A stretch of 64,000 nucleotides of DNA from Acidobacteriota bacterium (GTDB lineage Bacteria > Acidobacteriota > UBA6911 > RPQK01 > JAJDTT01). Below, piece after piece: positions 3,666 to 63,958 of the stretch. Each line of letters opens with the position of its first letter. Positions within the stretch are counted from its first letter, which is position 1. The notes beneath the pieces were generated by a model. That model had not been told where the DNA came from. It saw only the letters and a program-made list of their open reading frames with translations, and ran no database searches. Both the position numbers and the translations under genes were made by a program. The stretch covers positions 5,088,001-5,152,000 of the forward strand of contig OZ253580.1 of assembly GCA_965263035.1 (NCBI GenBank). The letters are read 5' to 3'.

Positions 3666-3674
3666 TAGCGACGC

Positions 3675-9927: not shown

Positions 9928-10088
9928 GGAGTCTGCGCGGTAGAAATGATCGTAGCGAGAAAGCGGGGAATCGAGGCCAGATTTTCTCGATTTGGAGGTG
10001 CATAGTTGTTCTATTCGCCGACAAATCGGGGAAATATGGACCGATTCTACCGCTTTCGCAGTAGATCAATTTCTGCCGCGCAGGCTCC
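9928..10088. mobile_element. MITE family A, copy 2
   Basis: Reverse complement of 3505-3665; TA on both flanks. Confidence 0.85.
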
Positions 10089-10126
10089 TAGCTCAGTCTA
10101 CCAGAGTCCCGCCCCTCCGACCCGCG

Positions 10127-20061: not shown

Positions 20062-20852
20062 CTTTGGACATGGCTCTGGTCGGAGGCGGCTCCACAGATG
20101 CTCCCGAGGGTGACGTAGATCACCGAACCGAATACGGTGACCCGAACCGCCGGGTCGAAGCTGAACCAAGGCTGGTGGTCCCAATGAGGCTGCCAGGAGG
20201 TTGGGATCCAGGTGACGGCGCCCAGTTGGTAGGTCACGATCCCGATCACCAGCCAAGCTCCTCCCAGCATGAGGGTCAGTTGGAGGGTGTCCGTGATGAC
20301 GACGGTTCGCAGACCCCCGACCGACGTGTAGATCACGGCGACGAAACCCGTGACCAGGATGACGACTGGAATCCACGATTCGTCCACGCCCAACATGACG
20401 GTCATGGCCCGGGCCGACAGGTAGACGAGAAGCGACATCCAGATCAGGCGCGAAAAGAGAAATATGGCGGCGCCCAGGAGCCGGATCCGCAGACCCAGTC
20501 TCTCTTCCAGGTACTCGTAGGCACTGATGACGCGCCGGCGCATGTAGAGCGGAAGGAAGACGTATCCCATGACCAGGTAGAGGATGGGATAGACCATGAA
20601 GTTGTTGAACATGGCGCCCGGGCCCTTGCCGATGGCCTCGCCGGGGACCGACAGGTAGGAGATGGTGCTCAGACCGGTCGCGAAGATGGAGAACCCCACC
20701 AGGGTGGAATTCATGCGCCCGCTGCCGGTGAAGTATTCGTTGAGGCTGGTCTGACGGCGGCCGTAGAAATATCCCAAGGCGAGCGTGCCCAGCGCGTAGA
20801 GAGCGATGATCGCCCAGTCGATGACTGCGAGTCCCGCGCTCGGGCTATTCAC
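20062..20852 (-). pseudogene. Sodium:solute symporter, 5' half (split by E1)
   Basis: IDWAII..EYFTG..SAYEYLEERLG..GGLRTVVITDTLQ..SDQSHVQ, then foreign sequence. Confidence 0.9.
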
Positions 20853-47291: not shown

Positions 47292-48434
47292 GTGCCATTC
47301 TCGCGGCGAGTGACACAGACCTCGCCCAACACCACCTCATCGCCCCGAAACATCACCAGGAAACGCCTGACGCGGGATCTCATTCGACTTGGGGTCCGCC
47401 GGGGGGACTGCGTCATGCTTCACAGCTCCCTGAGCAGCCTGGGGTGGGTTGACGGGGGTGCGGCGACGGTGGTGGAGGCGTTCCTGGACGCCATGGGACC
47501 GGAGGGGACGTTGCTGACGCCGGCCTTTACGGGAGGAGCCTGGACCGAGTACATGGCCCTTCCGGACTGCCGCGACGTCTGCCCCCAGCCCTTCTGTCCC
47601 AGCCAGTGGGCCAGCCGGGAGGGAGCGATCCCGAACGCCGCCCTGCAGCGCCCCGGTCGTCTCCGAGGGTGCCATCCCACCCACTCCTGGATCGCCAACG
47701 GGGCGCGGCGCCAGGAGGCGCTACGCGGTCAACGGGACTGTCCGACTCCCTGCGGCCGAGGGAATCCGTTCGAGAAGGTGGTGGAGTGGGACGGCTGCAT
47801 CGTCATCCTGGGAGTCGGCGTCGACACCATCACGCTCTGGCACTATTACGAGGATCTCTTGGATGTGGACTATCTGGGCTACTACCATCCGGAGGCGCGG
47901 CATCTCTCCTACTGCGCCACCGGAAAGCGGATTCAATACGACTTCCCCGGGATCATGCAGGACGTGGTCCGAGCCTCCACGATCATGACTGTGGGAAAGG
48001 TCGGGAGAAGCGAGTCGGGGTTGATCCGGGCTCGCGTCTTCCGCCGGTTCATGGCCACCATCATGGCCGACGATCCCGATTGTTTCGTGTTGAGACCGGC
48101 GGATGCGGCAAACGGGGACTTGGCCGCCGACGCATTGGCCAAGGGATCCGCCATGCTCCGGGCCTGGCGCCGGGGTCCCGTTGAATTGCCCGTGCGGATC
48201 GACCTGCCGCAAGGCTACGACGATCTGGTCCGGGAGGACTGCCCCTCTTTTGCCGGCTACCACGAGGCGGTCGGCCGGCGATGGCCTCTCTGCTGGGCCA
48301 ACGACCGGCATCCGGAGTTGCACCACCACGGAGGAATCTTCGATCGTCTGGGAAAGACCTGCTGTGGCCGGTGTTCCTGGCACCATCGCTATCCGGAGGG
48401 ATCGGCCCGGTCGGAGAACGAAGGTCAAGGTTAG
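47292..48434 (+). CDS. AAC(3)-family N-acetyltransferase-like protein with a Cys-rich tail
   Basis: LGVRRGD.VMLHSSLSSLGWVDGGA, HPTHS, LGVG..T..HYYE. Confidence 0.75.
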   Translation: MPFSRRVTQTSPNTTSSPRNITRKRLTRDLIRLGVRRGDCVMLHSSLSSLGWVDGGAATVVEAFLDAMGPEGTLLTPAFTGGAWTEYMALPDCRDVCPQPFCPSQWASREGAIPNAALQRPGRLRGCHPTHSWIANGARRQEALRGQRDCPTPCGRGNPFEKVVEWDGCIVILGVGVDTITLWHYYEDLLDVDYLGYYHPEARHLSYCATGKRIQYDFPGIMQDVVRASTIMTVGKVGRSESGLIRARVFRRFMATIMADDPDCFVLRPADAANGDLAADALAKGSAMLRAWRRGPVELPVRIDLPQGYDDLVREDCPSFAGYHEAVGRRWPLCWANDRHPELHHHGGIFDRLGKTCCGRCSWHHRYPEGSARSENEGQG

Positions 48435-48444
48435 CCGGAACTTC

Positions 48445-49162
48445 TCACCGGGATTCGAACCGAAAGGCGAACAGGTCCGCGTCCTTCAGGACGAAGCGAA
48501 GACGCACATCTCGTCCGGCCAGCTCGCCGACGTCCGGACCCTCCGTCCAGCGGACCTCCCGCTCCAGCTCGTCCCCGAACGTGGGCGGGCAATCCTCCAG
48601 GCTGTAGCCTTCCAAGGGATTTCCCGCGGCGTCCTGGATCTCCACGCGAAGGCTCCCCGCCGCCGAAGTGGAGAAGTTCAGCAGCAGCCGATCCCCCAGG
48701 AAGCGAATGGGGCGAGTGACGATCTCCCCGCCCGACATGGGTGCCGAGACCGTCACGAACCCGTCCAACCTCAGGGTGTAACGCCGCAGGTTGAGACTCT
48801 CGCCTGTCCAGTACCCCTCGGTGGCGTAGATCGAAATCTCGTTGGGAGCTCCCTCGATGTGGCTTCGGGTCTCCACCAGACCCCAGTTCTGATTGTTGTC
48901 CCCGTAGACCCAGTTATCCACCGGTCTCAGACCAGGACGGATGAAGGCTTCCCGCCAGCGGTGGAAGTGGATCCGGTCGCGGCTTGCCATCAGGAGACCG
49001 TCGGTGAGGCCGGTTCCGTAACGGAGGCTGACGCCGGCTCGCAGCCGGCGATGCTCCAATCCCGGGAGGGCTCTCATGGAATCGGACCATCCCCGCTCAA
49101 GGTAGCGGTTGGGAAACCCCAGCAGGATGTGAGGGGCCCGGTGGTAGGGAATGATCTGGTTG
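48445..49162 (-). pseudogene. Glycoside hydrolase-like propeller gene, 3' part (split by E2)
   Basis: NQIIPYHRAPH..SRD..FIRPG..LRLDGFV; continues from 61381-62212. Confidence 0.88.
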
Positions 49163-49211
49163 TTATGCACATGTTCCCGTCATATGAATCTGTTACTATA
49201 TGGAGGAACAC

Positions 49212-50174
49212 ATGAGCATAAACCTAGCAGAATCAAGACTTTCCATTGTCCCAAAGATGGAACAGGATGCTACGCTATCCAAGCTTCTGTCTCAATCCCA
49301 CAGCATTAACACGCTCAAGGCATATAATGGACAGGTGAACGTTGCCAAGCGCCGGGGACTTGATACTGACAACCTCACAGACTATTCCATCGCTCGATAT
49401 GTCGCCCTCATGATGGACAAGGGGACCGCCTATGCCAGCGCCTACAATGCCGTGAAAAGCTTGAACTGGTATTGGAGAGAAACCCATGGGCGCAAGGCTA
49501 CTGGCCCCATGACGAAAAAAGCCCTCGAAGGATTCCACCGAGACCATGAAGCGCAGAAGCGAGGCTACGGCCAAGTGGACGGGATCACCTGGAAAATGGC
49601 CGATCAGGTCTGTTCTAGGCTGGATCAACTCCGGACCCTGACCGCCCTTCGAGATTCCATGATCTTCGGCATTATGTCGGATGCCCTTCTCAGAGCTTCC
49701 GAGATGGTCAACGTGAGAGTAGAAGATATCGTGAGAGATCCATCCGGTTCCGGACTGGTAATCATCCGCCGATCTAAAACAGACCAGTACGCCGAAGGGG
49801 ACACCCGATATCTCAGGGCCGAGACTCTGAAACGGATAGACACCTTCCTGGATAGAGTCGGCATCACGTCAGGTCATATCGCCGTCAGGTTCCATTCCAA
49901 CCGGTACACCCGAGCAGTCATGGTAAAGTCTCAGAAGCCACTCAAGACACCTGGAATCCGCCAACTCACCGTCCGAAGGTTGACTCAAGCTGGATACCAT
50001 GGCCGGTTCGGTTCGCACTCGTTCCGAGTAGGGTCCGCTCAGGAACTCGCCCGCAATGGTGCCGGAGATATTGACATCATGAGAGCAGGTGGATGGAAGA
50101 GAGCCGACACCGCCGCGAGATACACAAGGAACGTTGAGGCTGGTAGATCCGCAATGGCGAGACTCAGGGGATAG
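49212..50174 (+). CDS. Cre-like tyrosine recombinase (apparently intact)
   Basis: GGAGG RBS; SINTLKAY, LLRASE, RSKTDQ, SHSFRVG, GGW, ARY. Confidence 0.92.
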   Translation: MSINLAESRLSIVPKMEQDATLSKLLSQSHSINTLKAYNGQVNVAKRRGLDTDNLTDYSIARYVALMMDKGTAYASAYNAVKSLNWYWRETHGRKATGPMTKKALEGFHRDHEAQKRGYGQVDGITWKMADQVCSRLDQLRTLTALRDSMIFGIMSDALLRASEMVNVRVEDIVRDPSGSGLVIIRRSKTDQYAEGDTRYLRAETLKRIDTFLDRVGITSGHIAVRFHSNRYTRAVMVKSQKPLKTPGIRQLTVRRLTQAGYHGRFGSHSFRVGSAQELARNGAGDIDIMRAGGWKRADTAARYTRNVEAGRSAMARLRG

Positions 50175-50181
50175 GAGAAAA

Positions 50182-50694
50182 TCAAGCCCCTGTAGGCCAC
50201 TTAGTACTCACGTAACGATATGACCTAGCGCGTTTTAGATTGCCCACCCTTGCCCACGCTTCGAAGAAGGGCAGAACGCGCCACCACTGTTCCAAGTCAT
50301 TTAACTTGGGATATTGAATCCCGAGTCTGTCCAGCTTATGTGTGACCGTCAACAGTGTCGTCCTCAAATCAGGAGAAATCCGAGGCTTTTGTGGATCGTT
50401 AGAAACTTCGAGCGTGTACTCAACTCCATTCCTCAGATGGTGGATGTCGTCCTCTAGAGCACGAAACTTGTTCTTAGGTCTCCACAAACGGACAGCGTCC
50501 CAACAGAAATTGATGGGAAGCACAATTGAAAACACCACCGCTATACAGGCCAGTAACAGGAAGAAAGGCGGGTGGATTTCTAAGTTTCCTAGCACCTTCC
50601 TCGGACCACTGTGAAGGGTCGAAACAAACATCCAGATTGCCCATATATCGATTCCCATAAAACTAGCAATCGTGGCAATTCTTCGAATCCGCAC
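50182..50694 (-). CDS. Hypothetical membrane cargo protein (2 TM)
   Basis: 170-aa ORF with two hydrophobic segments. Confidence 0.55.
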   Translation of the reverse strand: MRIRRIATIASFMGIDIWAIWMFVSTLHSGPRKVLGNLEIHPPFFLLLACIAVVFSIVLPINFCWDAVRLWRPKNKFRALEDDIHHLRNGVEYTLEVSNDPQKPRISPDLRTTLLTVTHKLDRLGIQYPKLNDLEQWWRVLPFFEAWARVGNLKRARSYRYVSTKWPTGA

Positions 50695-50844
50695 CCAAGC
50701 ACTCTACACCCTATCCCGTATTTGCGTCGAGTGAACAATCACCCATGAACCGGCCCGGCCCATGCTCTGGTACTCGTGAATCAGGGGAGCCAAGAGAGAG
50801 CCTGTCAGAGCCCCTAGAATCGACGTTCTACCGGGAGACGGCCC

Positions 50845-51927
50845 CTAGCCTCCCTCCATATCAAATCCGCAGATCCTCGCCGCCTGTTCCGCCGTCAGGT
50901 TTCCGTCAGTTCCCGTCATCGAACTGAAAGCCCTCGCCCGGCCTTGTAGGTCGCTGGCAAAAAGCCCGGCAAATCCAAGACTGATTTTCGTATCCAGCTT
51001 GGTAGACAACTCAGATTCGATGATCCGAGAACACGGCTTTAGACTTCCATGAAGAAATCTGCGCCAGCTTTCTCGCTGGGACGATCCCTCCGCTGACGCA
51101 TCCGCCAGCGCTGGCGGTATGCCGTTAGCTGCTAGGATCACTCGGCCCACGTCGCTCCATAAATCTACGTTTCCTTGCGGAATTTTGGCTCCCAATCTCT
51201 GCGGCACCCAGTCTCTTTGCGGAGCACTTCCGCGCCCTTCCGACCATCCGCCGGAAGTCGTCTCAACTAGGCTAATGCCGCCGCTCAAAGCTGCTAGGTC
51301 TGTTCTAAGCTGTTTCAATGGGTCCGAGTCTGTACCGTCTCCGCCATCGCTAGGAATCGGCAGAACGTAGCCAACTGGTCCGGATGTTTCTTCCCCTAGT
51401 CTCGTTTCCAGGTTCGCCCCGAGACTGCCCGTAGAACAGGCAAACGAAAGGGGAGAGATCCCTTTCCAGGGGGAGGACGGATGGACCGCAAACCGCACAT
51501 GGACGACTGAGGATGCCGGATAGGTTCGGGAAGTGGTAGAGCTAGGGCCGGGAAGATCAACTCTGTAGATCCAGGATTCCGGATCATAGGAACCTTCCAC
51601 TTGCCAGCCGGACCCCTCGATTAACCTAACCTGTCCACTCGGCTTGATCTCAATTACAAATAGAACCTCGCCGCGCCGGACCATTCCCCGGCCCATAGAC
51701 GCCAGCACAGCGGGAGACAGTGCCGCAGTGACCGGAGACCCTACCGGAGAAATATCAGCACTTGCCAGACCCCGAGACCATACGCCCGCCGCCACTTCCA
51801 AAGCGCCCAGGCCGTCAGGGTCCGGAGTTATTCCCGTCGCCCTGTCTTGAATCGCCTTAACAATGGCATCCGTATAGGTTTCACTAGAACGAGTTTCGAG
51901 ACCTACAATCCGCCGCCAGTTGAACAT
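50845..51927 (-). CDS. Phage portal protein (E2)
   Basis: GLETRS, RRGEV, VVHVR..PWKGISPL, ILAANGIPP, IESELSTKL, RARAF. Confidence 0.82.
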   Translation of the reverse strand: MFNWRRIVGLETRSSETYTDAIVKAIQDRATGITPDPDGLGALEVAAGVWSRGLASADISPVGSPVTAALSPAVLASMGRGMVRRGEVLFVIEIKPSGQVRLIEGSGWQVEGSYDPESWIYRVDLPGPSSTTSRTYPASSVVHVRFAVHPSSPWKGISPLSFACSTGSLGANLETRLGEETSGPVGYVLPIPSDGGDGTDSDPLKQLRTDLAALSGGISLVETTSGGWSEGRGSAPQRDWVPQRLGAKIPQGNVDLWSDVGRVILAANGIPPALADASAEGSSQRESWRRFLHGSLKPCSRIIESELSTKLDTKISLGFAGLFASDLQGRARAFSSMTGTDGNLTAEQAARICGFDMEGG

Positions 51928-52292
51928 CACGCAATTACCCCGGCCCTTCTGACCTTCCACGGATTCAGAAGTGATCCCGCTCCCGAGTATTTCAACGCGC
52001 CCAGTTCATCCCGGAAGCGTCTTGAGGATATTTCCGTATTTGCCGTCTTGATCGTTTTTCCCCTGGACGCATCCGCCAGCCATGAAACGATCCTCAAAAC
52101 CGATTCGTCTTTGATAGGGTCCGGAGCTAGGCTTGCATATCGCTCTACCAGTTCCGCCGCTACCGGACCGAACCGAAGCGCCCGAGACTGCCCGGACGAT
52201 CCCGAATCGTTAAAGGCTGACGTGGCAATCCGCATAACTGCGGCATCCTGATCTAGAATATCAACCGGCCAAGGTGCGAGATTCACAGCCAA
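51927..52292 (-). CDS. Putative head-tail connector
   Basis: AAELVERYA..APDPIKDESVLRI..SGAGSLLNPW; position between protease and portal. Confidence 0.65.
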   Translation of the reverse strand: MAVNLAPWPVDILDQDAAVMRIATSAFNDSGSSGQSRALRFGPVAAELVERYASLAPDPIKDESVLRIVSWLADASRGKTIKTANTEISSRRFRDELGALKYSGAGSLLNPWKVRRAGVIA

Positions 52293-52735
52293 ATTCTACG
52301 CCTCCCTTGCCGGTTCCTCAGTTCCGCCTTTCCCTGAGAATATTCCGGAGCCTTCACAATCGCGACCGCTTCCAAGAACGCGGAATTGATCTCCCGGACG
52401 CCGGAGCCGTTGCGCTTCTCTTTCAGGCTGTAGAATTCGATGCTGGCACCCCGGACCCCAGCCGCTAGAGCCTGGATTATCTCGGAAGTGGGATTTTCAG
52501 AACTGACTTGGATTCTGCCGTCCGGTAGTCGTACCGGCATCGACCTTAATTCTTCACGGTTTCCGTGACCTAGCCTGATAGCGATACCATCAGATCCCCA
52601 TTGCATCGAGCCGGGAGCAAACAATTCTTTTAATCCGCTTGCTATTCTTCCCTCTTGTAGCGCCGTCACTATCAACTTGGATTTTCCCGAATCTTCCCGA
52701 ATCTCACAATTTCCAGCTACTTGTAATTCTCTCAA
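52283..52735 (-). CDS. HK97-family prohead protease (E2)
   Basis: QEGR, ELFAPGS, RLGHG, GASIEF, GVREI; clear homolog of 16595-17050. Confidence 0.8.
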   Translation of the reverse strand: MRELQVAGNCEIREDSGKSKLIVTALQEGRIASGLKELFAPGSMQWGSDGIAIRLGHGNREELRSMPVRLPDGRIQVSSENPTSEIIQALAAGVRGASIEFYSLKEKRNGSGVREINSAFLEAVAIVKAPEYSQGKAELRNRQGRRRIWL

Positions 52736-53181
52736 CTTGATCTCCCATACCAGCGCCGAAGCGCTTTAGCGCACTCGGGAGACAATTCTCCCGAAGAATC
52801 CGCCAGCCGAGACGCCGCTACCGCTTCCCCTGGATCTACCGTTACAATCCGCCCTAAAGTGCCAGAGCCGCCAGCCGAGATGATCCGTTCCCGGATACGC
52901 TCAACGGCAAGTGGAGAGCTAGAGCTAGTCGTCGCCCAGCCGTTGAGACCCACACTTGCCGCGAATCTTATAGCAGTCGATTTCAAGTAAAGCGCCATTC
53001 TCAAACCGGGATCGGTAGCAAGCCGGATCGGATATCGTTTCGTAACAGGGTCCCTTTCTATTCCGAGAATCGACGACCAGATAGCCGTAACATCAAAGAG
53101 ATGGTCATCGCTGGACCTGTTCTCTTCGTACCATTTCGATTTACCGGCACCAGCCGGTCCCCTGATTATTCCTATCGGCAT
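52732..53181 (-). CDS. Small P-loop NTPase/kinase-like protein
   Basis: IIRGPAGAGKS; VDPGE..RL. Confidence 0.7.
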   Translation of the reverse strand: MPIGIIRGPAGAGKSKWYEENRSSDDHLFDVTAIWSSILGIERDPVTKRYPIRLATDPGLRMALYLKSTAIRFAASVGLNGWATTSSSSPLAVERIRERIISAGGSGTLGRIVTVDPGEAVAASRLADSSGELSPECAKALRRWYGRSS

Positions 53182-54443
53182 TAGACAAGTTTGAACGCCC
53201 GGAGATCAAAAGAATCTTCTCTAATCACTTTGAAATTCCAGAGACTAATTATCGTCAAAGCAACTTGACCGGATGCCGCCGCCGTATACGGATCTCGAAC
53301 GATCTCCACACCTTCCCAGATCGGAGCCACAGCGCCGGTAGCTAGTCGTCTCGTAACAATCGCCGTAGAAACATCCTTATCGGGTCCGGTTGTAGGAGCA
53401 ACCGGAAGATTTCCAGAAACACGAACGCTGGAAAGATCGGCCAAGTATTCCAGAGCCGTTCTAGTCACTCCCGCTGTCATGGTCTTTGTACTCAATTCTG
53501 GATAAAGATCGGAAGGGACCAACAGCCCCACGTCTGCCGCAGTTGCCGCATATTTTCCGTCCACCGCCCCAGTGACGGATTTCACGGCATCCGCCCACGT
53601 AAAAACATCGCTAGGAGTCGTCGGAGCCGTGATCGTTGTAAGGATTCCGGAGACATTAGGTGCCGTTCCGTTTCCCGTAATGGATTGAAGATCAATTGCA
53701 TCAGATACAGTGCTTGATAAGTCTGCCCTCAGAGTATCGTCCATCCCGTCCAACTGCGCCGAATCCTCCACAGAGAACAGATACCGCGCCGTGATCCTGG
53801 TAGGCGTCAGCACTGAGCTACTGAACGTCGCCGCTACCGCATTCTGAGCCACGCCCCGAGTCTTATTCTCTGCCGTAGCACCGGCAGTCAGAAGCGGATA
53901 TGCCGTGGTCCCAGTTGGGACCGTCGGCATGGAAACTCCGAGAAACTGCGCCGCAGAAGCGGCAAAGACTCTCCGGATTATTTGAGTCTGCCGATTCGGG
54001 AAATTTAAAGCCCCTAGAGCCGTCGCCACGTCTGACCGCTTCTCAGGTTCAAGCGCTTCCGGACCCGCCAGAGCAGCCCAGGGGAAGCGCCCAGGGGCTG
54101 CTTTCTCGCCTAACATGGCCGTCCGTAATTCAGACTCGGGAGAAGATTCGGCAAGCGGATTCTGTCCCCATGCTTCCAGCACGTAGCTAGAGAGTTTCGC
54201 TTTCCGAATGAGAGACCGAATTTCCGCTCCCTCGCCGTCTTCTCTATCAACCGGCGGGATAGCCTCATTCTCCGCGATGATGGCCGCTCTATGCCTAGCT
54301 TCAAGATCGGAAAACTCTTTCCGCAGGGTCTCGCCCTCAGATCTAATATCCTCAGTAAAGTCTGCCCCGGATAATCCAGCTATGGAATTCAGTCTTTCGC
54401 GCACCTCAGAAATTCGCAGTGTTATTTTCTGGCTTGTAGTCAT
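53181..54443 (-). CDS. HK97-fold major capsid protein (E2)
   Basis: Coiled-coil N-terminus, FLGVSMP, LTPTR, GNGTAPN..GI, VRDPYTAAASGQV. Confidence 0.88.
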   Translation of the reverse strand: MTTSQKITLRISEVRERLNSIAGLSGADFTEDIRSEGETLRKEFSDLEARHRAAIIAENEAIPPVDREDGEGAEIRSLIRKAKLSSYVLEAWGQNPLAESSPESELRTAMLGEKAAPGRFPWAALAGPEALEPEKRSDVATALGALNFPNRQTQIIRRVFAASAAQFLGVSMPTVPTGTTAYPLLTAGATAENKTRGVAQNAVAATFSSSVLTPTRITARYLFSVEDSAQLDGMDDTLRADLSSTVSDAIDLQSITGNGTAPNVSGILTTITAPTTPSDVFTWADAVKSVTGAVDGKYAATAADVGLLVPSDLYPELSTKTMTAGVTRTALEYLADLSSVRVSGNLPVAPTTGPDKDVSTAIVTRRLATGAVAPIWEGVEIVRDPYTAAASGQVALTIISLWNFKVIREDSFDLRAFKLV

Positions 54444-54459
54444 TTTTTATCACCTTTAG

Positions 54460-54765
54460 TTATAAATAGTTATCAGTTATGCTTATTCTAGTCGTTTTAT
54501 TTGAAAGTGTCGTTAAATACTCTCGCCATTCTACACTATCGGGGCTGATACGTGTATTATTTTCCTTGCGAGTTTTGGAAATATGACAGGGTACACATAA
54601 AGACTGGATATTGGATCTCCCATACAGAGAACCGCCAGCATTTCTAGGCTTGATATGATCCGCTTCCAGCTTCCCGCGTTTCCCGCAGCGCTGGCACTTA
54701 AAGCCCGCTTCCCGTAAGACTCGCCAGCGCAGCCGCTCCCACCTTCTGCCCTTCAATCCGCTCAT
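54460..54765 (-). CDS. HNH endonuclease (E2)
   Basis: RWERLR..CQRCG..LEADHI.P..GG..NIQSLCVPCH..KT. Confidence 0.9.
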   Translation of the reverse strand: MSGLKGRRWERLRWRVLREAGFKCQRCGKRGKLEADHIKPRNAGGSLYGRSNIQSLCVPCHISKTRKENNTRISPDSVEWREYLTTLSNKTTRISITDNYL

Positions 54766-56864
54766 GCCGCCCGTACCACTCCGCCATTCCGCCATGATCC
54801 GCCAGAATTCTTTATCCTCATGGTCTCGGCCAATCCAGCCGCAATAACTGCCGCTGAGAGACTGTCTATCCTCGATAATCCGGACCTTTTATCTAATGCC
54901 GGATTTCCGGCACCGTCATAGCGGAGACGGGAGCCAGCTACCGCACTCGACAGCATCATCGAATCGCCGTGAAATAGTTTCTTTTCCATCACGAACCGCT
55001 GGAATGCTCGAACGTCATGGGAGCCATCCGCTGTAGCACTCGCCCCGGTTCCGCGCCAGACAACCGGAGACCGGGAGCCAGCATCCGCTAGAGCCTGTTC
55101 CGTCTCTGCCCGCCGGTATCTATCCGCCCCGATCACTAGCACTCGTTCGCCAGCCAGTTTCGATAGGACAGACTGCAAAAAGACTCCGACCCGGACCATA
55201 CGCCCCTGATGGAGATTCAATTCTCCAGACTTCCTCATTAGGTCATATCGGATGCCGTCTCGACGTTGCCGAGCTTCGATCCCGGGCATCGACGGAAAAG
55301 CCCCAAAAACTTCGATCCGACCAGTTCCAGGCCATAAGGCTGTTGCGGCAGTCATAGAAGCGGACCCGCCTAGATCAATGCCCAAAACACATTTCCCGTC
55401 TCTTTCCGGTTGCGGACCGCTGCAACGCTTCCAGTCTGAAGGGGAAACGATCCTTTCCACGGATGGCGACCCCGGCAGATTCAAGTCTTGAGACCTAAAG
55501 AAAATTTCATCAGATGGAGTCGATTTAGCCCGCCTGGATTCATGCTCCATATACGCCGTGGCTTTGATGGTCCCTAGACCTGGATTAGCGTTTTCCCACT
55601 CAATTCGGTTCAGTAGGTCGCAATCCTTACTAGATGCCTGGAACAGATGCGCGACAACGCCAGCGGCTTCCCGCCTTTTCATAATTTCGGGAATGTAGGG
55701 ACCGCTCCCCCATATGGACAACGCTATAAATTTCCCGTTTTTCGCCGATACCGCAGCCCTCATGCTGGCGACTAGTTCCCGATCTCGTTCGGATAGCAAG
55801 CCCAGTTCGTCAACAATCGCTAGATCCAAGCTGGCGGAATGCCCGCCCATGCCCGAGTCACCAGCCAAAATCTCAACCTGACCATGCTTACTAACAATCT
55901 TTCCAGGCCATGGACTTCTCTTAAACAATAATGTTCTGGATAGTCCACTTGCTCCCGCTATTTGCTCAATTTGTTTCGTTAGTTCCCTCGCTTTAGCCTT
56001 GTTAACACTGCAAATTCCAGCCCGCCACCCACCTTTAACGTTTCTTAATGGCCCTACCAAGTGACCTAGGCAGAATACGGCAACTATTGCGGATTTAGCA
56101 TTCTTTCTAGCGAGACAGAGCAGCGCTTCTCTTGTCGATGGCTTTAAGCAATCACCTAGAAAATTGCGTCCAAAAGGTGGCAAAGCCATAGGCAGACCCT
56201 CTTTAGGATGCCCAGGGGGAACTATTAATGTCTCTTCTGCCCATGCTGACAACCGTTCTATCTTGGATTTCTTCCGTTTAACACTGCTACTCGGCCCTTT
56301 TCCCGGTATAACGTTGTTTTTCCGGTTGATTTTCCTCCAGGCACGAGCATTACACGCCCTAGTAGCATACTTTTTAGGTTTTTTGGTATTCTGTATCAAT
56401 TCAACGCCGCAGCCACAAGCACAGTATTTAAGTCTATTCCCTACTAGGCCAAGTCGCTTATTAGTAAGAAAAGCCTGAATTCTGCAATTATCGGTAGCGT
56501 ATAGAGTAGGTATCCCGTGGAGTTTATGTATCCGAGCTGGACGACCGCACCCGCAAGCGCAGTCCGGACCAGGATTCGGCTTTTCGTAAACCGTTTGATA
56601 TGATGCCCGATGCCGACAATTTTTTGAAGCGAATCCAGTCCATTTCCTCAGTGACTTCTCAGAGCGTGAAACCGGTTCACCACAACCGCCCCGGCAACGT
56701 GGTCTAGTCTCTGGTCTCAGTGAGTCTAGGCCACCCCTCGATCCCCCCGGTTCGGATGGATTCGGAACAGGGTCCCGGACCATTTTTTGATCCATATTCT
56801 CGTATGTACAAATTTTTGGATCATCCCCTTTGACCATCTTCGATCGAGAACCGACAAGCATCAA
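54762..56864 (-). CDS. Terminase large subunit with three N-terminal zinc-finger-like repeats
   Basis: ARKNAKS, IVDELG, WENANPGL, GIDLG, DRYR, RID; three C-x-[CG]-G-C-G...A[ST]xxC repeats. Confidence 0.88.
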   Translation of the reverse strand: MMLVGSRSKMVKGDDPKICTYENMDQKMVRDPVPNPSEPGGSRGGLDSLRPETRPRCRGGCGEPVSRSEKSLRKWTGFASKNCRHRASYQTVYEKPNPGPDCACGCGRPARIHKLHGIPTLYATDNCRIQAFLTNKRLGLVGNRLKYCACGCGVELIQNTKKPKKYATRACNARAWRKINRKNNVIPGKGPSSSVKRKKSKIERLSAWAEETLIVPPGHPKEGLPMALPPFGRNFLGDCLKPSTREALLCLARKNAKSAIVAVFCLGHLVGPLRNVKGGWRAGICSVNKAKARELTKQIEQIAGASGLSRTLLFKRSPWPGKIVSKHGQVEILAGDSGMGGHSASLDLAIVDELGLLSERDRELVASMRAAVSAKNGKFIALSIWGSGPYIPEIMKRREAAGVVAHLFQASSKDCDLLNRIEWENANPGLGTIKATAYMEHESRRAKSTPSDEIFFRSQDLNLPGSPSVERIVSPSDWKRCSGPQPERDGKCVLGIDLGGSASMTAATALWPGTGRIEVFGAFPSMPGIEARQRRDGIRYDLMRKSGELNLHQGRMVRVGVFLQSVLSKLAGERVLVIGADRYRRAETEQALADAGSRSPVVWRGTGASATADGSHDVRAFQRFVMEKKLFHGDSMMLSSAVAGSRLRYDGAGNPALDKRSGLSRIDSLSAAVIAAGLAETMRIKNSGGSWRNGGVVRAA

Positions 56865-57301
56865 CGACCACTCCCGCCACGTCTCTCGAAATTTCCACGA
56901 CGTAGCCTATCCGTCACCACTCGCACCGTTCCAGCTACCGCCCTTTGGACAAAAGCGGCAGGGACACCAAGCCGAGCCGATCCTGATGCGTTTAATTTCT
57001 CGATATGCCGCAGCCCATTAGAAACGTAGGTTTTTCCTCGTTCCAACTTGTAGCCAGTAAGGATAGCCCCGGAGGACGTTAGCCTATTCTCCCGAGCCTC
57101 CCGCAGCCCTCGAACTGTCCCATCCCCTTGCCCGCCCATCGACGGATTCCAGTTACTTGCCGTCCACGTCGATTCTTTAGGGCATTTATTATAAAGCTGG
57201 CGTGACGCTTCAAGTGTGGCGTTTACTACAGTGTTTTCGACAATTCGCCTAATCTCTTTGCGGATTGCCTGGATTTGAGCCTTTTCGCTTGCCGTGGGCA
57301 T
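56861..57301 (-). CDS. HK97 gp10-like neck/tail-completion protein
   Basis: CPKESTWTASNW..YVSNGLRHIEKLN..GS..PAAFV pattern. Confidence 0.6.
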   Translation of the reverse strand: MPTASEKAQIQAIRKEIRRIVENTVVNATLEASRQLYNKCPKESTWTASNWNPSMGGQGDGTVRGLREARENRLTSSGAILTGYKLERGKTYVSNGLRHIEKLNASGSARLGVPAAFVQRAVAGTVRVVTDRLRRGNFERRGGSGR

Positions 57302-57352
57302 ATTTTGACTCTTGGAAACGGAACAGTTACAGGGGAATGGTCATTGACCTAG

Positions 57353-59117
57353 CCCGGATATCTCATCAGAAAGATTGATAAAGGCCGCGTTTTCTGCTAT
57401 AAGTGTTGTGTAATCAATAACTTACAAAGCAGAAGGGACGCGACCTTATGACCGCAGAGTGTACCAGAATAAAGCTCAGATTTCAGGGCCTGGACGGACG
57501 GGATGTCGTGGGCCGGTTCGACGGCGGCGAGATCACCTCCGACGCCGGTGGCGTGCTCCTGCGCGAAGTGGAGCAGCGGACCCGGATTCTGGGTCGTCTG
57601 AGCGAATGCTTCACCGACTATCGAGACTCGGATCGAGTCGAACACCCGGTGGAGGCGTTGATCAAACAGCGGGTGCTGGGGCTGTGCCTGGGCTACGAGG
57701 ACCTCAACGACCACGACGAGTTGTGCCGGGACCGGCTCTTGGCGCTGTTGTGTGATCGAGATGATCTGACGGGGGAGTTCCGGCGCGTGGAGTCGGATCG
57801 AGGCAAGCCGCTGGCAGGCAAGAGCACCCTGAACCGACTGGAGCGGACTCCGTTGGAGGGACCGGAGGGCGCGTACAAGAAGATCGTGGCCGACCCGGCG
57901 GGGATGGACGAGCTGCTGCTGGAGGTGTTTGTGGAAGCGCATCCGGAGCCCCCGGAGGAGGTGATCCTGGATGTAGACGCCACGGACGATCCGCTGCATG
58001 GGAAGCAGGAGGGACGGTTCTTCCACGGCTATTACAAACGCTACTGCTACCTGCCGCTGTACGTCTTCTGTGGGGAACACCTGTTGCGTGCGCGGCTGCG
58101 CACGGCGGATCGAGGCGCGGCCCACGGGGTGGTGGCGGAGTTGGAACCAATCGTGAGGCGGCTGCGTGAAGCGTGGCCCCAGGTGCGGATCACGGTTCGA
58201 GGGGACAGTGCCTTCTCCAACGACGAGTTGATGGTCTGGTGCGAGAAGGAAGGGATCGATTACGTCCTGGGGTTGGCGCAGAACGATCGGCTGAAGCGGA
58301 GGATCGCGACCCGGATGGAGACCGTCCGGCAGTTGCAGCGGGCGATCGGGAAGGCCGTGAGGCAGTTCCAGGAACTGCGCTATCAGACGCACAAGAGTTG
58401 GTCGTGCGAGCGCCGGGTGGTGGCGAAGGTGGAGCACCTGCCCCGGGGAAAGAACCCGCGATTCATCGTGACTTCGGTCCCGGTCCAGGAATGCGATGGG
58501 CGAAGATTGTACGAGGAGGTCTACTGCGCGCGGGGAGACATGGAGAATCGGATAAAGGAACAGCAGATGGGTCTGTTTGCGGACCGCACGTCGACCCGGA
58601 AGCTGGCGGGGAATCAACTGCGGTTGTATTTCTCGGCATTCGCCTACGTGATGATGGAGACGTTGCGACGGGTGGGGCTGGCGGGGACGAAGCTGGCGCG
58701 GGCGCAGAGCTGGACCCTGCGGGTGAGATTGCTGAAGATCGGGGCACAGGTCCGGATCACCAGCCGCAAGGTCTGGTTGTCCTTTTCCGAGAGCTATCCG
58801 TATGCGGCGCTGTTGAGGACGGCTCTGACGCAAGTGCAAGCCCTCCCGCTTCGCTGTTAGCAACGGATGGAAAGAACTCTTTGGACGATGGCGACTTGGG
58901 AGTCCCCAGGATGGACTGCGCCCCGGAGTGGGCACCGGGTCGAGAGTCGTCGCTCAGAAGCGCAGGATGGGCGTCAAAAGGCTCTGGAGAAGCGCTGCAT
59001 CTGGCCGTTGGTCGGCACGTTCGAGCACGAAAACTGCCTCTTGAACTCGTATGGATAAAGAATCACCCAGACGACGGTTCAACTTCCGTTTATTGTTCTA
59101 CTGATGAGAAATGCAGG
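57353..59117 (+). mobile_element. IS1380-family element inserted into E2
   Basis: Terminal inverted repeats CCCGGATATCTCATCAG / CTGATGAGAAATGCAGG (14/17); CTAG on both flanks. Confidence 0.92.
57448..58860 (+). CDS. IS1380-family transposase
   Basis: FDGGEITSDAG, GYEDLNDH, LDVDATDDPLHG, RGDSAF, YCARGDMENRIKE. Confidence 0.95.
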   Translation: MTAECTRIKLRFQGLDGRDVVGRFDGGEITSDAGGVLLREVEQRTRILGRLSECFTDYRDSDRVEHPVEALIKQRVLGLCLGYEDLNDHDELCRDRLLALLCDRDDLTGEFRRVESDRGKPLAGKSTLNRLERTPLEGPEGAYKKIVADPAGMDELLLEVFVEAHPEPPEEVILDVDATDDPLHGKQEGRFFHGYYKRYCYLPLYVFCGEHLLRARLRTADRGAAHGVVAELEPIVRRLREAWPQVRITVRGDSAFSNDELMVWCEKEGIDYVLGLAQNDRLKRRIATRMETVRQLQRAIGKAVRQFQELRYQTHKSWSCERRVVAKVEHLPRGKNPRFIVTSVPVQECDGRRLYEEVYCARGDMENRIKEQQMGLFADRTSTRKLAGNQLRLYFSAFAYVMMETLRRVGLAGTKLARAQSWTLRVRLLKIGAQVRITSRKVWLSFSESYPYAALLRTALTQVQALPLRC

Positions 59118-59426
59118 CTAGGGGAAAAGGCTCCATTCCCCTGCAACAAGGAGATATCAAAGACAGTATAGCAAAAAGATATGACTATTTATTGGGAATA
59201 TAGCCTCGAAGCCATAGTAAACAATGAAGGTAGGCTATTCACTACTGACAGTATCACTAAGGACACTCCAAATTAAGGCTCCGAGACTATAGGGTGATGA
59301 ATCCAACTGCATTATCTCATAAAAGGTATGACTAAAAATCTTTCCAGACCAAAGAGAATAGATAAAGCGTCAGCTTATAAACGATATGCCACAACGCCAA
59401 GAATATCAGCACGAGTACAAGCAACG

Positions 59427-59663
59427 TCACCGAGACGCCACTCTCCAGCGACGATCAAGCCGGGAGCCATCGACCCACCGCCAAGCTTGTATCCCTTCCA
59501 ATGGCCCCCAGTGCAAGGTAGCGATCTCTGCCCCATTGCCTTTTAGGATCAGCCTACCGCGCATCCGATCCCACTCTACAGCCGTCGCCCTGTAGATTCG
59601 GCAGTCATTCGATTTCCCCTGGAATTGCACTTGAACCGACTTGATCTTGATTTTTTGCATCAA
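59427..59663 (-). CDS. Small hypothetical protein (E2)
   Basis: 78-aa ORF co-oriented with its neighbours. Confidence 0.35.
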   Translation of the reverse strand: MMQKIKIKSVQVQFQGKSNDCRIYRATAVEWDRMRGRLILKGNGAEIATLHWGPLEGIQAWRWVDGSRLDRRWRVASR

Positions 59664-59691
59664 GTGAGTCTAGTGTACCAGGGAGACAGCG

Positions 59692-60105
59692 TCAGTCGTC
59701 GTGGTGTCCAGCGATCCGCGTCAAATCACGATAAAGGTCCCAAATATCACGAGCGATCATTGCCCCAGTTTTTCGGATAATTCTTCTCATCGTAGCTTCA
59801 ATTCGACCCTCACTAGGAGGACGGATTCCCGGAGGAAGGGTCTCGATGGGATACACATACGATTTATGTAAGTCGCTTCCATCATACTTTGTTGATTGTT
59901 CCATTATTTTTCTGAATTTATGTCTTAAGCCATCTGGAAAATCTTGTTCTCTCAGTGAAGATAGGTGGTAAATCAGCGCGTCTTTCAATCTATTCCTCAC
60001 ATCTCCCTTCCCAACGCACATAGTTTCAATCGCTAAAGTTACTCGTTCAAGAACGTCCTTTGCTTTTTCTTTGTTTCCCATCGGAACTAGACCCCCGTAA
60101 GCCAT
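59692..60105 (-). CDS. Hypothetical cargo protein (E2)
   Basis: 137-aa helical ORF closely following 60109-60513. Confidence 0.65.
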   Translation of the reverse strand: MAYGGLVPMGNKEKAKDVLERVTLAIETMCVGKGDVRNRLKDALIYHLSSLREQDFPDGLRHKFRKIMEQSTKYDGSDLHKSYVYPIETLPPGIRPPSEGRIEATMRRIIRKTGAMIARDIWDLYRDLTRIAGHHDD

Positions 60106-60108
60106 CCC

Positions 60109-60513
60109 TCACTTAGTGGCATCTCCGCAATCTTTCATGACCCGACATATATCGCTCATAGACTCTTTGATTCTTATAATTTTCATTGATTGCGATTTAT
60201 TGAGTTTACGGAGCACAGTCGCTTCGGACTGTGAAACCTTGTCGTCTGGAAACTGTTGGGATGGAATATTTGCATTATAAAACCGGATGTTTTCGCATCG
60301 GTCCAGCAATACTGGCCGTGGCTTATTCGATGACATCTCAGGTCGGAGTTCAAATTTTTTGGATTCCAAATTTTCATACCAAACATGCTGGGCAACTACT
60401 GTGACCAGCAAATACCTTGGATCAGCATCACAGGGCTTTTCAGCCTGCACCAGACCCGTGAACAGAACCGCCAGCAATGCAAAATTCTTGCCAAAGTTGC
60501 AGCCCTCACTCAT
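60109..60513 (-). CDS. Hypothetical secreted Cys-containing protein (E2)
   Basis: GGAAGGGG RBS; signal-like FALLAVLFTGLVQA. Confidence 0.6.
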   Translation of the reverse strand: MSEGCNFGKNFALLAVLFTGLVQAEKPCDADPRYLLVTVVAQHVWYENLESKKFELRPEMSSNKPRPVLLDRCENIRFYNANIPSQQFPDDKVSQSEATVLRKLNKSQSMKIIRIKESMSDICRVMKDCGDATK

Positions 60514-60779
60514 GTTCCCCTTCCTTCCTTCTCGCCCTAGTCTCCAAAATTTGCCGTATCCGCTCACGGGATATCCCGAACCGGCCACCGATCCTCTCTA
60601 ACGTCTAATCCGCAGCCCGAAGGGACCGGATGACCCGGTTCCGTATTGGCCGATGGTGTGGAACTGCTTTTTTCATGCCGCTTTATTCAGGATTTCTTCT
60701 TTTTTTATTTTTAACACTTCAACCTATAAAGTGAAACAACTTAACGATGCTTTCTCTAGTCTGGAAGATACTCAGGAAG

Positions 60780-61250
60780 GATTCTCACTCGGCCCCTTCT
60801 CTCTCCCCCTATAGATCCTGTTTCGATTACCCTGGATAGATTCAGGCAGAGAACTATCTAGCACTGTGCATGCGTTAGGAAAATACCTTCCGCACACACA
60901 GTCCTGTTCCTTGTCTGAATCTATGATCCCGCTCCGATCAGAGCCTATCAAGACCCAGGCAGAGACCCAAAAGTTGTGGATCTCATGGCGTCAGCTACTT
61001 TATCGCGGAGCAACTTCTCACACGTCATGCTCCCCTTCCGACGCTCCGAACTGGGGAAGAATCCTAGTGCATGATGCACGGCAGTGGATTCATTTTTTGC
61101 GGATTACTTACTTCCTCGATCCCTGCCGCCAAGCGGTTCGAGAAAGGTGCAATGTCACGCCCGCTCCAATCTTGAATCCAGCCTCAAGACTCCGAGTGGA
61201 TCAGACCCGGTATCCCAATCGCCTTAAGGCTGGATTCGATGGAGGGAGTA
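60780..61250 (+). ncRNA. Candidate large structured RNA of E2
   Basis: Stems 60836-60854/60906-60924 (with G-U pairs), ~61079-61128 and 61174-61184/61227-61237; motif shared with the E1 region. Confidence 0.45.
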
Positions 61251-61330
61251 TAGCAGATAGGTCTGTAAAAAAGAAGCGTTTTTCCAACTTTTTATCATAC
61301 CATTGTAAATTTAATGCTCAATGCCGAGGC

Positions 61331-61359
61331 TTGACACTGGAAAGGGAATTTAGTACAAT
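61331..61359 (+). promoter_or_regulatory. Outward-facing sigma70 promoter at the E2 right end
   Basis: TTGACA-17 bp-TACAAT, 21 bp before the crossover core. Confidence 0.75.
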
Positions 61360-61380
61360 AGGCGAGTAGTAGGGAACATA

Positions 61381-62212
61381 CTGGTTGGTGTAGAGATGCT
61401 CGTCCGGAGAACCGGTGGTAGTTGAGCCAGACCGGATCGGTCCAATTCAGAAAATCCTGGGAAGTTCCGGTCATGACGTCCCGGATACCCTTGGTTCTCG
61501 GCTGATTCTCCGCAGTCTGCCTGAAGTCGCGGTGGTATTCGCGGTACTCGTTTCTGACCGAATCCCAGAAAGCCAGGTTCTGGGAGTCGAAGTAGCCCTT
61601 GGTGATAACCGGGCGGTCCGCCATCAACTCCCAGTGGATGGCGTCGGCCGACTTCCAGGCGTAGAGTCCCCATTTACGGCTCAAGGAGAAGGCCTTGTAG
61701 CGCGCGTCGGGCGAGGCCGCCGGATTTGCGTCCTTGAAAGGGACGAAGTTCCGAATCGTATCCCCGTTTGGGAGCCGATCCAGGAGGATGTTGTTCCGCT
61801 TCGACCCCTCGAACTCGACCAGGCCCAGTTGGGGCCGGTACCAGTGGATCCCGTCCAGACTCTCGGCGTAACAGGTCACCTGCCGGCGTGGGAACTCGAG
61901 CTTCTTCCCGGTCACGAAGTGCCAGCCCCGGTAGTACATGCGATAGCGGTTTTCATCCTGGAAGATAGTGAAAGTGAAGCAGGCATTCCCCTCCCACGGA
62001 CGATCGGTCACCAGGGCCACTCCTTGGGGAATCGGGCGTTGCAACCGGAGTCGAGCCTCGCCCCGGAGTTCTTCCACCAAGCTCGGTTCCACGAACAACT
62101 CCAGCCGGGAACCGATGTCCAGGACCTCCGAGTGGAGGCTCCAGCAGAGCATGGGGAAGAGCATTGCGAGGATCCGCGGCCTACTGAAAAGCGACGTCAA
62201 GGTCCGGTTCAT
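61381..62212 (-). pseudogene. Glycoside hydrolase-like propeller gene, 5' part, with a +1 frameshift near 61416
   Basis: Signal peptide, RLELFVE, DRPWEG, YAESLDGIHW, FDSQNLAFWD; GSPDEHLYTNQ lies in a shifted frame. Confidence 0.85.
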
Positions 62213-62232
62213 TCCTGTTTCTTCCTTTCGCT

Positions 62233-63738
62233 TCAGTCCGAGGTGCGGGCCGGGAAGATCCGCGACAGCACCAGAGCCGATCCGAACGTGATCAGCGAGG
62301 AGACCGGGATCACCCACATCCAGGCCAACCGGGGGAGGCCGAAGAGCCAGTGGCCCTGGGCCCAGACCAGGCCCGCCGACATTCCCGCCAGCGCCGATAA
62401 GATGACCGCCCGGCCGCTGGCCGGAACCTTCAGTATGGCCAGAAACATCATGGCCCCCAGAGTGCCCACCAGGAAGCTGCTGATGCGACCCGTCAGGTCG
62501 AAGAGGTTCCCCCGCTGATCGTCGGGAATCGAATCCAGAAGGAAGCAGGTCAGTATGGCCACGACTCCCGCCGCCACGGTGACGGCGCGCGCCAGGATCA
62601 TCTCGGCGCGGGGACCGGCAACCGTCCTGCGCAGGCGCCTGTAGTAGTCGGTGATGATCACGGACGAGATGGAGTTGATTCCCGAATCCAGGCTCGACAT
62701 GGCGGCGGAGAAGAGGGCGGCCACCACCAACCCGGCCAGGCCCCGGGGGAGGACGTGGCCGATGAAGTGGGGGAAGACGCTGTCCGTGTCCGCGGGGAGA
62801 TGGGTCCGGTAGTAGGAGTAGAGAGCCATGCCGCACAGGCTCAGGAGGAGGGTGATGACGACGCTCGCCGTCAGGTTGCAGGCGAAGGAGCGGCGGGCCG
62901 ACCTGGCCGAGTCGGTGCTGAGGTAGCGTTGCACGGCCACCTGGTCTCCGGCCGCGGTGCAGATCCACCAGAAGAAGGTCCAGGTGATCATTCCGAACCA
63001 GCTCAACCGGACCGTCGGATCGAGGCTGAAGAGCGGTTGCGGTTCCATCTCAGCCGCCGCCATTTCCTGGTACCAGGTGATCGGTCCGGTCCCGGCGTCG
63101 AAGGCGATGTAGCCGATGGTGAAGAGGGCGCCCCCCAGGAGAATGAAGAACTGGACCACGTCGGTCCAGATGACGGCGCGGATTCCCCCCAAAGTCGTGT
63201 AGAGGGTTCCCACGGCCGCCACCCCCAGGACCACGGTCGCGAAGGGCAGGCCGCTGATGGTCGCCAGTGCGCCGGCCGCCGTGAAGACGATGGTGCCCAT
63301 CCACGCCAACCGGATCAGGACGAAGATGGAGGCCCCGAAGAGGCGCGTGGGCAGATCGAACTGCCGCTCCAGGCATTCGTAGGCCGAGGTGATCTTCAAT
63401 TTCATCAGGAAGGGGACCACCAGGTAGCCCACCAGTACAAAGACCAGGGGATAGGAGAGCAGCTGCGAGTTGGCGCCCAGGCCGTGCTTGATGATCTCAC
63501 CGGGGTGGGAGAGATAGGTGATGGTGGAGATGATCGAAGCCAGCAGGCTCAGTCCGACCGCGAACCAGGGCATGTTCCGCCCCGCCAGGAAGTACTCCTC
63601 GGTGTCGCTCTGGCGCCGGCTGAAGTAGTAGCCGAGGAGGACCACGGCGGCCAGGTAGAGGAGAATGGCCGCGTAGTCGATGCCGTGGAGCCCCTGAAAT
63701 CGGTCGGGCGGACCGCCCAGGGCCAGCAAGGTGCTCAT
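62233..63738 (-). CDS. Sodium:solute symporter
   Basis: EYFLAGR.MPW, GGIRAVIWTDVVQ, DQVAVQRYL, AAMSSLDSGINS. Confidence 0.93.
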   Translation of the reverse strand: MSTLLALGGPPDRFQGLHGIDYAAILLYLAAVVLLGYYFSRRQSDTEEYFLAGRNMPWFAVGLSLLASIISTITYLSHPGEIIKHGLGANSQLLSYPLVFVLVGYLVVPFLMKLKITSAYECLERQFDLPTRLFGASIFVLIRLAWMGTIVFTAAGALATISGLPFATVVLGVAAVGTLYTTLGGIRAVIWTDVVQFFILLGGALFTIGYIAFDAGTGPITWYQEMAAAEMEPQPLFSLDPTVRLSWFGMITWTFFWWICTAAGDQVAVQRYLSTDSARSARRSFACNLTASVVITLLLSLCGMALYSYYRTHLPADTDSVFPHFIGHVLPRGLAGLVVAALFSAAMSSLDSGINSISSVIITDYYRRLRRTVAGPRAEMILARAVTVAAGVVAILTCFLLDSIPDDQRGNLFDLTGRISSFLVGTLGAMMFLAILKVPASGRAVILSALAGMSAGLVWAQGHWLFGLPRLAWMWVIPVSSLITFGSALVLSRIFPARTSD

Positions 63739-63794: not shown

Positions 63795-63958
63795 TAGCAG
63801 TCCGTGGTGAAAGTCCCGCGAGCACCGAGACCGTTCCTGCGCCCGCCGGACAAGGCGCGATGAGGGAGCATACCGGGAGTATGTGACCGAATCGCAACGC
63901 AGTCCGCCGGGATGCAGGGACGGTCGAATGCCGTGACGACTTTTGCCACGGGCTGGTA
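63795..63958. mobile_element. MITE family B, copy 2
   Basis: Diverged reverse complement of 7055-7220. Confidence 0.85.

Follow-up and report, generated by a model that had tools for sequence, protein, structure and literature searches.

Which gene is served by a near-consensus promoter that stands at the very end of a mobile island and points out of it? The question is raised by island E2 in the window, i.e., the whole 64,000-nt stretch of Acidobacteriota DNA analysed here. E2, an integrated phage-like island, spans 12.2 kb (10.4 kb without its insertion sequence, IS), with an integrase gene at its left end and such a promoter at its right end. A sequence-only reading had proposed that this promoter would reach the recombinase gene only after circularisation. 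We hold with moderate confidence that the right-end promoter of E2 is the integrase promoter of the circular form. This reading is supported by the anatomy of the element, the use of the consensus promoter by the host, and the recurrence of the arrangement in related islands.

Island E2 and its attachment site

Apart from the integrase gene, E2 carries a head and packaging module and an IS (Table 1). Tail, lysis and replication genes were not recognised by Pfam and PHROGs among the 17-21 ORFs scanned, and neither an alpA-type regulator nor a primase or replicase had a match in E2 with the same two libraries. The IS, which has ~14 times the chromosomal depth in the strain's own runs and at which the contig breaks, may have destroyed a gene in 57349-59690. 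The host gene split by E2 belongs to a large family with ~70 matches in each of 15 genomes (the genus and a sister genus) and proteins of 500-540 aa. Its 5′ part contains an additional T (61416) that neither six sister genomes nor the empty-site contigs X6 and X7 share, a frameshift gained later, in an already broken gene. The IS-bearing copy of E2 in this frameshifted gene may still be able to move, or it may be an immobile relic. This genome and related ones hold well over 100 copies of a ~165-nt repeat, a miniature transposon, some of them in the window itself.

Table 1. Features of island E2, its surroundings and related loci (window positions unless stated otherwise)
Feature	Position	Strand	Description and basis
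Split host gene, 3′ part	48445-49162	-	No Pfam match
attL core CTGGTTG	49156-49162		Alignment A1, 6 orthologous loci; empty-site contigs X6, X7
E2 body	49163-61380		12,218 nt between cores; GC 46-57 % against ~65 % in the flanks
ATGTTCCC, right inverted-repeat arm	49171-49178		8 nt within the left end
TGTTACTAT, extended -10-like element	49191-49199	+	Candidate weak local promoter; sequence
Ribosome-binding site GGAGGA	49202-49207	+	4 nt upstream of the integrase ATG
Integrase gene	49212-50174	+	320-aa tyrosine recombinase, inward from the left end; Pfam Phage_integrase PF00589, E = 6e-13
Portal-like gene	50845-51960	-	Pfam, PHROGs
Three small ORFs	51927-53181	-	In head/packaging module (50845-56864)
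Capsid gene	53181-54443	-	Pfam, PHROGs
HNH gene	54460-54795	-	Pfam, PHROGs
Large terminase (TerL) gene	54762-56864	-	Pfam, PHROGs
Insertion sequence	57349-59122 (approx.)	+	Transposase ORF 57448-58860, Pfam DDE_Tnp_1_4
Open frame of 167 codons	60866-61369	+	Covers the outward promoter; no match in Pfam or PHROGs
Leftward promoter-like site	61294-61321	-	TTGAGC-16-TATGAT with TG, 9/12
Outward sigma-70-type promoter	61331-61359	+	-35 TTGACA 61331-61336, 17-nt spacer, -10 TACAAT 61354-61359
GGGAACAT, left inverted-repeat arm	61372-61379		Complete repeat only in the joined (attP) form
attR core CTGGTTG	61381-61387		Alignment A1, 6 orthologous loci; empty-site contigs X6, X7
Split host gene, 5′ part	61381-62212	-	Start 62212, 20 nt after SSF transporter ORF; no Pfam match
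~165-nt repeat copies	3502-3667, 7055-7220, 9926-10091, 63795-63958; L065 16065-16232		
Paralogous integrase gene	Genome 5,660,883-5,661,912 (L036 15871-16912)	-	38 % identical to the E2 integrase
E1 outward site	19786-20067 (site to core)		TTGATA-17-TATACT, 10/12, 248 nt from the core
E3 tRNA-Leu(taa) gene	L130 1537-1622; genome 5,348,837-5,348,922		68 nt within the far end, strand opposite the outward promoter
L063 TATAACA heptamers	~16655-16695 (three); ~8378-8384 (one)		Near the far end; between core and integrase start

The ends of E2 were located by comparison with uninterrupted loci. Six loci of the same genus (85-96 % DNA identity) match attL up to CTGGTTG and attR from CTGGTTG onwards, and contigs of other public runs, X6 and X7, fuse 49155 to 61381. 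These contigs skip 12,225 bases and leave seven letters that fit both sides, hence the assignment of CTGGTTG as the core. The empty sites in other strains show a single precise insertion. Contigs of X1 and X2, the strain's own runs, contain neither the circle junction nor the empty site; rare forms are dropped from contigs. Two further candidates were rejected. A joint of 49149 to 61380 with five extra letters, considered as an excision scar, is a paralogous gene at ~4,422,088, and the 10-bp repeat CCGGTGGTAG (49137-49146 and 61410-61419), considered as an alternative crossover, is produced by the extra T at 61416.

When the ends are joined, the sequence becomes GGGAACAT-A-CTGGTTG-TTATGCAC-ATGTTCCC, i.e., GGGAACAT-16-ATGTTCCC. 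The inverted repeat that the sequence-only reading had described around the core of the circle is indeed there, in the joined form only. Its 8-bp arms enclose a 16-bp spacer and are placed asymmetrically about the 7-bp core (1 nt on one side, 8 nt on the other); as 40 of 1000 shuffles reach 8 bp across the join, the repeat alone is only modestly significant, suggestive rather than strong. The target in sister genomes resembles the joined site over ~40 bp, including an ATGTTC equally far from the core, a likeness that would fit recognition by the recombinase.

The outward promoter and the start of the integrase gene

A TTGACA-17-TACAAT promoter facing out of the right end of E2 and a recombinase ATG 50 bp inside the left end were the starting points of the proposal. 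Both held on re-examination: the coordinates and the strand of the promoter were verified, and the ATG at 49212 lies 50 nt past the core. With a score of 11/12 against the consensus, the promoter is the sole site at that score in E2; among the seven promoter-like sites (at least 9/12) in 48500-62500, it alone exceeds 9/12. Its -10 hexamer ends 21 nt ahead of the attR core, 22 nt separate the promoter from the island end, and the predicted transcription start is ~61366. In the integrated state the promoter is, as had been claimed, antisense to the host, pointing into the 5′ part of the split gene (61388-62212, minus strand) and then into the SSF transporter gene. Rfam gave no match in 48400-62300. 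The leftward promoter-like site nearby has its -35 hexamer back to back with that of the outward promoter, 10 nt apart, and the two may form a shared control region.

At the other end of the island, the order is CTGGTTG, TTATGCAC, ATGTTCCC, TGTTACTAT, GGAGGA and ATG, and there is no other gene between the attL core and the integrase start. A second in-frame ATG, at 49200, is not preceded by a ribosome-binding site. The distance from the core to the ribosome-binding site is 39 nt, too short for a full promoter with a leader, and between 40 nt before and 110 nt after the attL core the highest score of a full promoter is 8/12. The local element that the earlier reading had named as a competing source of expression is present as TGTTACTAT and could give some integrase expression; the start predicted for it (~49206) lies within the ribosome-binding site.

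The closest solved relative of the E2 integrase is Cre (E = 2.8e-15, residues 130-318). The integrase motifs LLRASE, RRSKT, HSFRVG, GGW and RY align opposite the Cre motifs LLR..E, K, H..R, W and Y, and we take them to be the catalytic R, E, K, H-R, W and Y (Cre residue numbering).

Use of the consensus promoter by the host

The 6.2-Mb genome was scanned for TTGACA-N16-18-TATAAT, scored out of 12. Thirty-six sites reach at least 11/12, five of which are perfect, compared with ~0.3 perfect sites and 12-14 sites at 11/12 expected from local composition; three of the five perfect sites are copies of one IS1595-type element. Sites with at least 11/12 stand 7-225 nt ahead of ORFs, and Pfam matches were obtained for 14 of the 15 such ORFs checked. 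The names include S21, L21, S20, GroES and HU, as well as ketol-acid reductoisomerase (IlvC), CarD, ferritin and IS1595 transposases. The host demonstrably uses a TTGACA/TATAAT-type consensus. Further, the paralogous integrase gene listed in Table 1 has a perfect TTGACA-18-TATAAT 7 nt before its ATG, from which it follows that consensus promoters drive this kind of gene in this host; the spacing suggests a leaderless transcript for the paralogue. At 18 of the 36 near-consensus sites an ORF starts 24-37 nt past the -10 hexamer (13 of them at 24-26 nt), and such uniform spacing implies short, uniform leaders of ~18 nt.

Recurrence in related islands

Close relatives of E2 were sought in several collections. 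Among 61 related genomes, the integrase has no close orthologue (the best are 38-40 % identical) and the right-end DNA is unique to this genome. Viral contigs gave no close relative by integrase or large terminase, and metagenome contigs gave only integrases that are 26-32 % identical. Low-depth pieces in X6 and X7, 92-95 % like parts of E2, stop at 61223, short of the promoter. The E2 promoter is therefore without an orthologous copy for comparison.

E2 belongs to a family of 8.5-12-kb islands that share the order terminase-HNH-capsid-three small genes-portal and a tyrosine integrase. Seven of them were compared (Table 2), the integrases of the others being 25-37 % identical to that of E2. 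A fixed rule was applied throughout: at the end away from the integrase gene, the outward strand of the 80 nt adjoining the core was searched for its best hexamer match. The share of an island's 80-nt windows that score at or above the site was taken as a measure of rarity, windows holding the site itself included.

Table 2. Best outward hexamer match at the end opposite the integrase gene in seven islands
Island	Location, core and basis of the ends	Best match	Score	Window share	Shuffles reaching the score
E2	This genome; see Table 1	TTGACA-17-TACAAT	11/12	0.001	4/2000
E3	Same genome; inserted at CTTCAA in an SSF transporter gene, whose two parts match SSF profile positions 1-65 and 119-345	TGGACC-16-TATAAT	10/12	0.002	1/2000
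L065	Genome G007; core GGATAGCAGGTG; empty site in the genome of E2 at 5,377,958-78	TTGATA-17-CATAAT	10/12	0.001	5/2000
L064	Genome G001; core TATCTTTTTT, inferred from a 10-nt direct repeat only	TTGAGG-18-TATATT	9/12	0.007	135/2000
L063	Genome G001; core CCCATCAG; empty site in the genome of E2 at 3,988,993-3,989,000	TTTACA-17-TAGGAT	9/12	0.002	32/2000
E1	In the window; core CTTTGG 10863-10868 and 20062-20067; empty site in five sister genomes	No site in last 80 nt	7/12	0.683	
L087	Genome labelled Latescibacterota, another phylum; ends inferred from an 11-nt repeat	No site in last 80 nt	8/12	0.161	

Five of the seven islands fit a far-end outward promoter, E1 does so partly and L087 does not. 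The sites of the five (E2, E3, L065, L064 and L063) rank in the top 0.1-0.7 % of each island's 80-nt windows, and the five control windows taken in each island (far end, inward strand; integrase end, both strands; the two host flanks) score 6-8/12. In these five islands the -10 hexamer ends 21-33 nt ahead of the core. All five integrase genes, each with a ribosome-binding site, begin 43-101 nt past the core; the best promoter score near their starts is 7-8/12, and the predicted leaders in the circle are 71-124 nt. Beside E2, the fitting islands have integrases 25-31 % identical to that of E2 and differ in their cores and target sites, and the promoter flanks of all five are unalignable by eye. 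It should be noted that the compared islands are related and hence not fully independent. In all four islands whose flanking host gene has a known orientation, the outward promoter points antisense to that gene, which argues that the promoter does not serve host gene expression.

Several islands have features of their own. Between the outward site of E1 (Table 1) and its core lie ~250 nt that contain several hairpin-like, G+C-rich repeats and may represent a small RNA or a structured leader. In L063 the integrase is cut short by a stop after 200 codons, so this copy may be decaying; the heptamer TATAACA, found three times near its far end and once between the core and the integrase start, is a candidate protein-binding site that the circle would bring together. 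A tRNA-Leu(taa) gene lies just within the far end of E3.

Other islands and integrases were left out of the counts: E4 (~17.5-20.6 kb of genome), E5, E6, E7, the G003 island and two G403 copies. In E5, E6 and E7 the integrase gene is co-oriented with the structural genes; for E6 only the left boundary was found, with three competing repeats for the right end, and no integrase was detected in the two G403 copies. The integrases 38-40 % identical to that of E2 (L037-L045) were also set aside because their ends were not found. Ten of these eleven genes have no promoter of at least 10/12 within 420 nt upstream, the eleventh being the paralogue with the perfect promoter. Most integrase genes of this group (L020-L030) are preceded by a conserved stretch with ATGTTCCCG or a close variant, the letters of the E2 right arm; at 10 loci of the group, a scan of the far side gave no matching arm.

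The portal gene leads to a wider set of relatives (L066-L129), with 34-53 % identity in the best segment. They come from genomes labelled Vicinamibacterales/Acidobacteriota, Latescibacterota, Spirochaetia, Gemmatimonadetes, Chloroflexota/Dehalococcoidia, Alpha- and Gammaproteobacteria, and Thermodesulfobacteriota. A tyrosine integrase like the queries was found in 3 of these 64 portal loci at E <= 1e-8 and in 5 at E <= 0.01. In L095 (1-10929), a 49-nt terminal overlap makes a circle of ~10,880 bp with genes for TerL, capsid, prohead protease and portal; none of its 13 ORFs scanned is an integrase, and it is thus uninformative on the junction. In L073 and L074, the first 40 nt are repeated after ~10.3 and ~10.5 kb, respectively, in a concatemer-like manner. 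All three may be episomal forms of the island family.

Alternative explanations

Other uses of the promoter have to be weighed against its proposed role in the circle. It could be active for the integrated state, either giving antisense RNA that silences the host fragment or the SSF operon or giving a short outward transcript, with the integrase expressed from the weak local element or by read-through from the left flank. We regard this as unlikely. The antisense orientation in four of four islands and the extended -10-like TGTTACTAT ahead of the integrase gene speak for it, but the targets vary from a paralog-family gene to an SSF transporter, an outer-membrane-like ORF and the end of an L,D-transpeptidase-like gene, which makes a shared antisense purpose difficult to envisage. 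Common to the islands is instead an integrase gene directly across the core, and the local element would initiate within the ribosome-binding site. It is less plausible still that the promoter is part of a right-end regulatory region, paired with the 61321-61294 site or belonging to the ORF at 60866-61369, and that its reading across the junction is incidental. The back-to-back 9/12 site only 10 nt away on the other strand and the 167-codon frame that covers the promoter speak for such a region. However, the frame has no Pfam or PHROGs match, the 22 nt up to the island end hold nothing to transcribe, and the outward promoter recurs in islands whose far ends have other content, e.g., the tRNA-Leu gene of E3, on the opposite strand.

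Finally, the match could be an inactive chance product of an A+T-rich island end, which seems very improbable. The GC content around the promoter is indeed only 0.39-0.44, ~12-14 sites at 11/12 are expected genome-wide, and sites of at least 9/12 are not enriched in 48500-62500 (7 against 7.4 ± 2.9 in shuffles). Yet by chance the final 100-150 nt of E2 would carry a site of at least 11/12 on their outward strand with a probability of only ~2-4 × 10^-3, shuffles of its last 80 nt reach 11/12 in 4 of 2000 cases, and the feature recurs in four other islands whose flanks cannot be aligned.

Proposed mechanism and implications

If the right-end promoter is the integrase promoter of the circle, the attachment site would sit in the integrase 5′ leader, with the promoter on one side and the ribosome-binding site on the other. 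In the free circle, a transcript from ~61366 would pass through the core and a 71-nt leader to the integrase ATG, and strong integrase synthesis would promote integration into a CTGGTTG target. Integration would sever the promoter from the integrase gene, leaving at most the weak extended -10 element, and the strong promoter would then read outward, antisense to the split host gene. Excision would rebuild the promoter-integrase unit, raise integrase levels and favour re-integration. The main effect would be a burst of integrase in the free circle and its shut-off upon integration, which would serve re-integration following excision and also the first integration in a new cell. As the integrase is Cre-like, it may need no directionality factor, and the split could thus bias the reaction towards the integrated state. 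The activity of the promoter, the junction-spanning transcript, the low expression in the integrated state and the effect on directionality are what we infer from this arrangement.

A broader version of the idea is that the split is the operating principle of the whole family of tail-less capsid islands, transcription alone directing a reversible, Cre-like recombinase. The integrase gene would be on only in the circle and its own reaction would cut off its promoter, a transcriptional ratchet that would substitute for a directionality factor. We consider this generalisation possible but rather doubtful.

Should the proposal be true, a mobile element would sense its own state, circular or integrated, through the position of its attachment site, and this would be readable from sequence. 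The underlying rule (the island's top sigma-70 match lies opposite the integrase end, at 20-35 nt from the core) may help to locate the ends and attachment sites of islands in uncultured genomes. Further, were the Cre-like enzyme to work without a directionality factor, the arrangement would also point to an integration cassette that is compact and self-limiting.

Comparison with known systems

Like the Cre/loxP site, the joined site of E2, with a total length of 32 bp, is a short inverted repeat surrounding the crossover. It differs from the loxP layout in that the arms match over the outer 8 bp only and are asymmetric around the 7-bp identity. Cre of phage P1 resolves plasmid-prophage dimers, without integrating into a chromosomal gene. 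For phage P2, Bertani is said to have put forward a split-operon idea; a paper on it was not found in our literature search.

As an element, E2 is close to the phage-inducible chromosomal islands (PICIs), for which an integrase facing inward is described as a trait (PMC10111431). Like a capsid-forming PICI or phage satellite, it is small, has an inward integrase and itself encodes capsid, portal, HNH and terminase proteins; tail and lysis genes were not recognised. Its content of integrase, capsid, portal and terminase, with neither tail nor lysis genes, agrees with that of PICIs of ~10-15 kb. In contrast to PICIs, no alpA-like gene and no primase or replicase were recognised in E2, and the host is an acidobacterium. 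We know of no helper phage for E2.

In its regulation, E2 may be likened to ICEclc of Pseudomonas knackmussii B13, whose Pcirc/Pint pair likewise has a promoter opposite the integrase end, facing out. Pcirc is described as a strong promoter that faces outward from the end opposite the integrase gene when the element is integrated and comes to lie upstream of that gene in the circle, where it is thought to raise integrase levels and aid re-integration (PMC5812530). However, ICEclc is a conjugative element of the 100-kb class that targets tRNA-Gly genes and has a P4-type integrase with a characterised, regulated local promoter Pint. E2 is a capsid-encoding island of ~10 kb with a Cre-like integrase, inserted in a protein-coding gene, with only 39 nt from core to ribosome-binding site.

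In Tn916, according to the same paper, promoterless genes are transcribed only once the element is circular, from promoters at the other end (PMC5812530). There the transfer genes are turned on and the integrase gene is upstream of the joint, whereas in E2 the integrase gene itself would be turned on. For IS2 and IS911, a strong recombinase promoter, Pjunc, is described that is present in the circle alone and disappears upon insertion (PMC3299598). Pjunc takes its -35 and -10 hexamers from different ends, and the recombinases are DDE transposases; E2 has both hexamers at its right end, so that it lacks the hallmark of an IS-type Pjunc, and a tyrosine recombinase. In our literature search, circularisation-dependent recombinase promoters were found only for ICEclc, Tn916 and the IS cases, with none for small capsid islands or Acidobacteriota. 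The type of regulation proposed for E2 is already known; the type of element and the phylum are new among the reports found.
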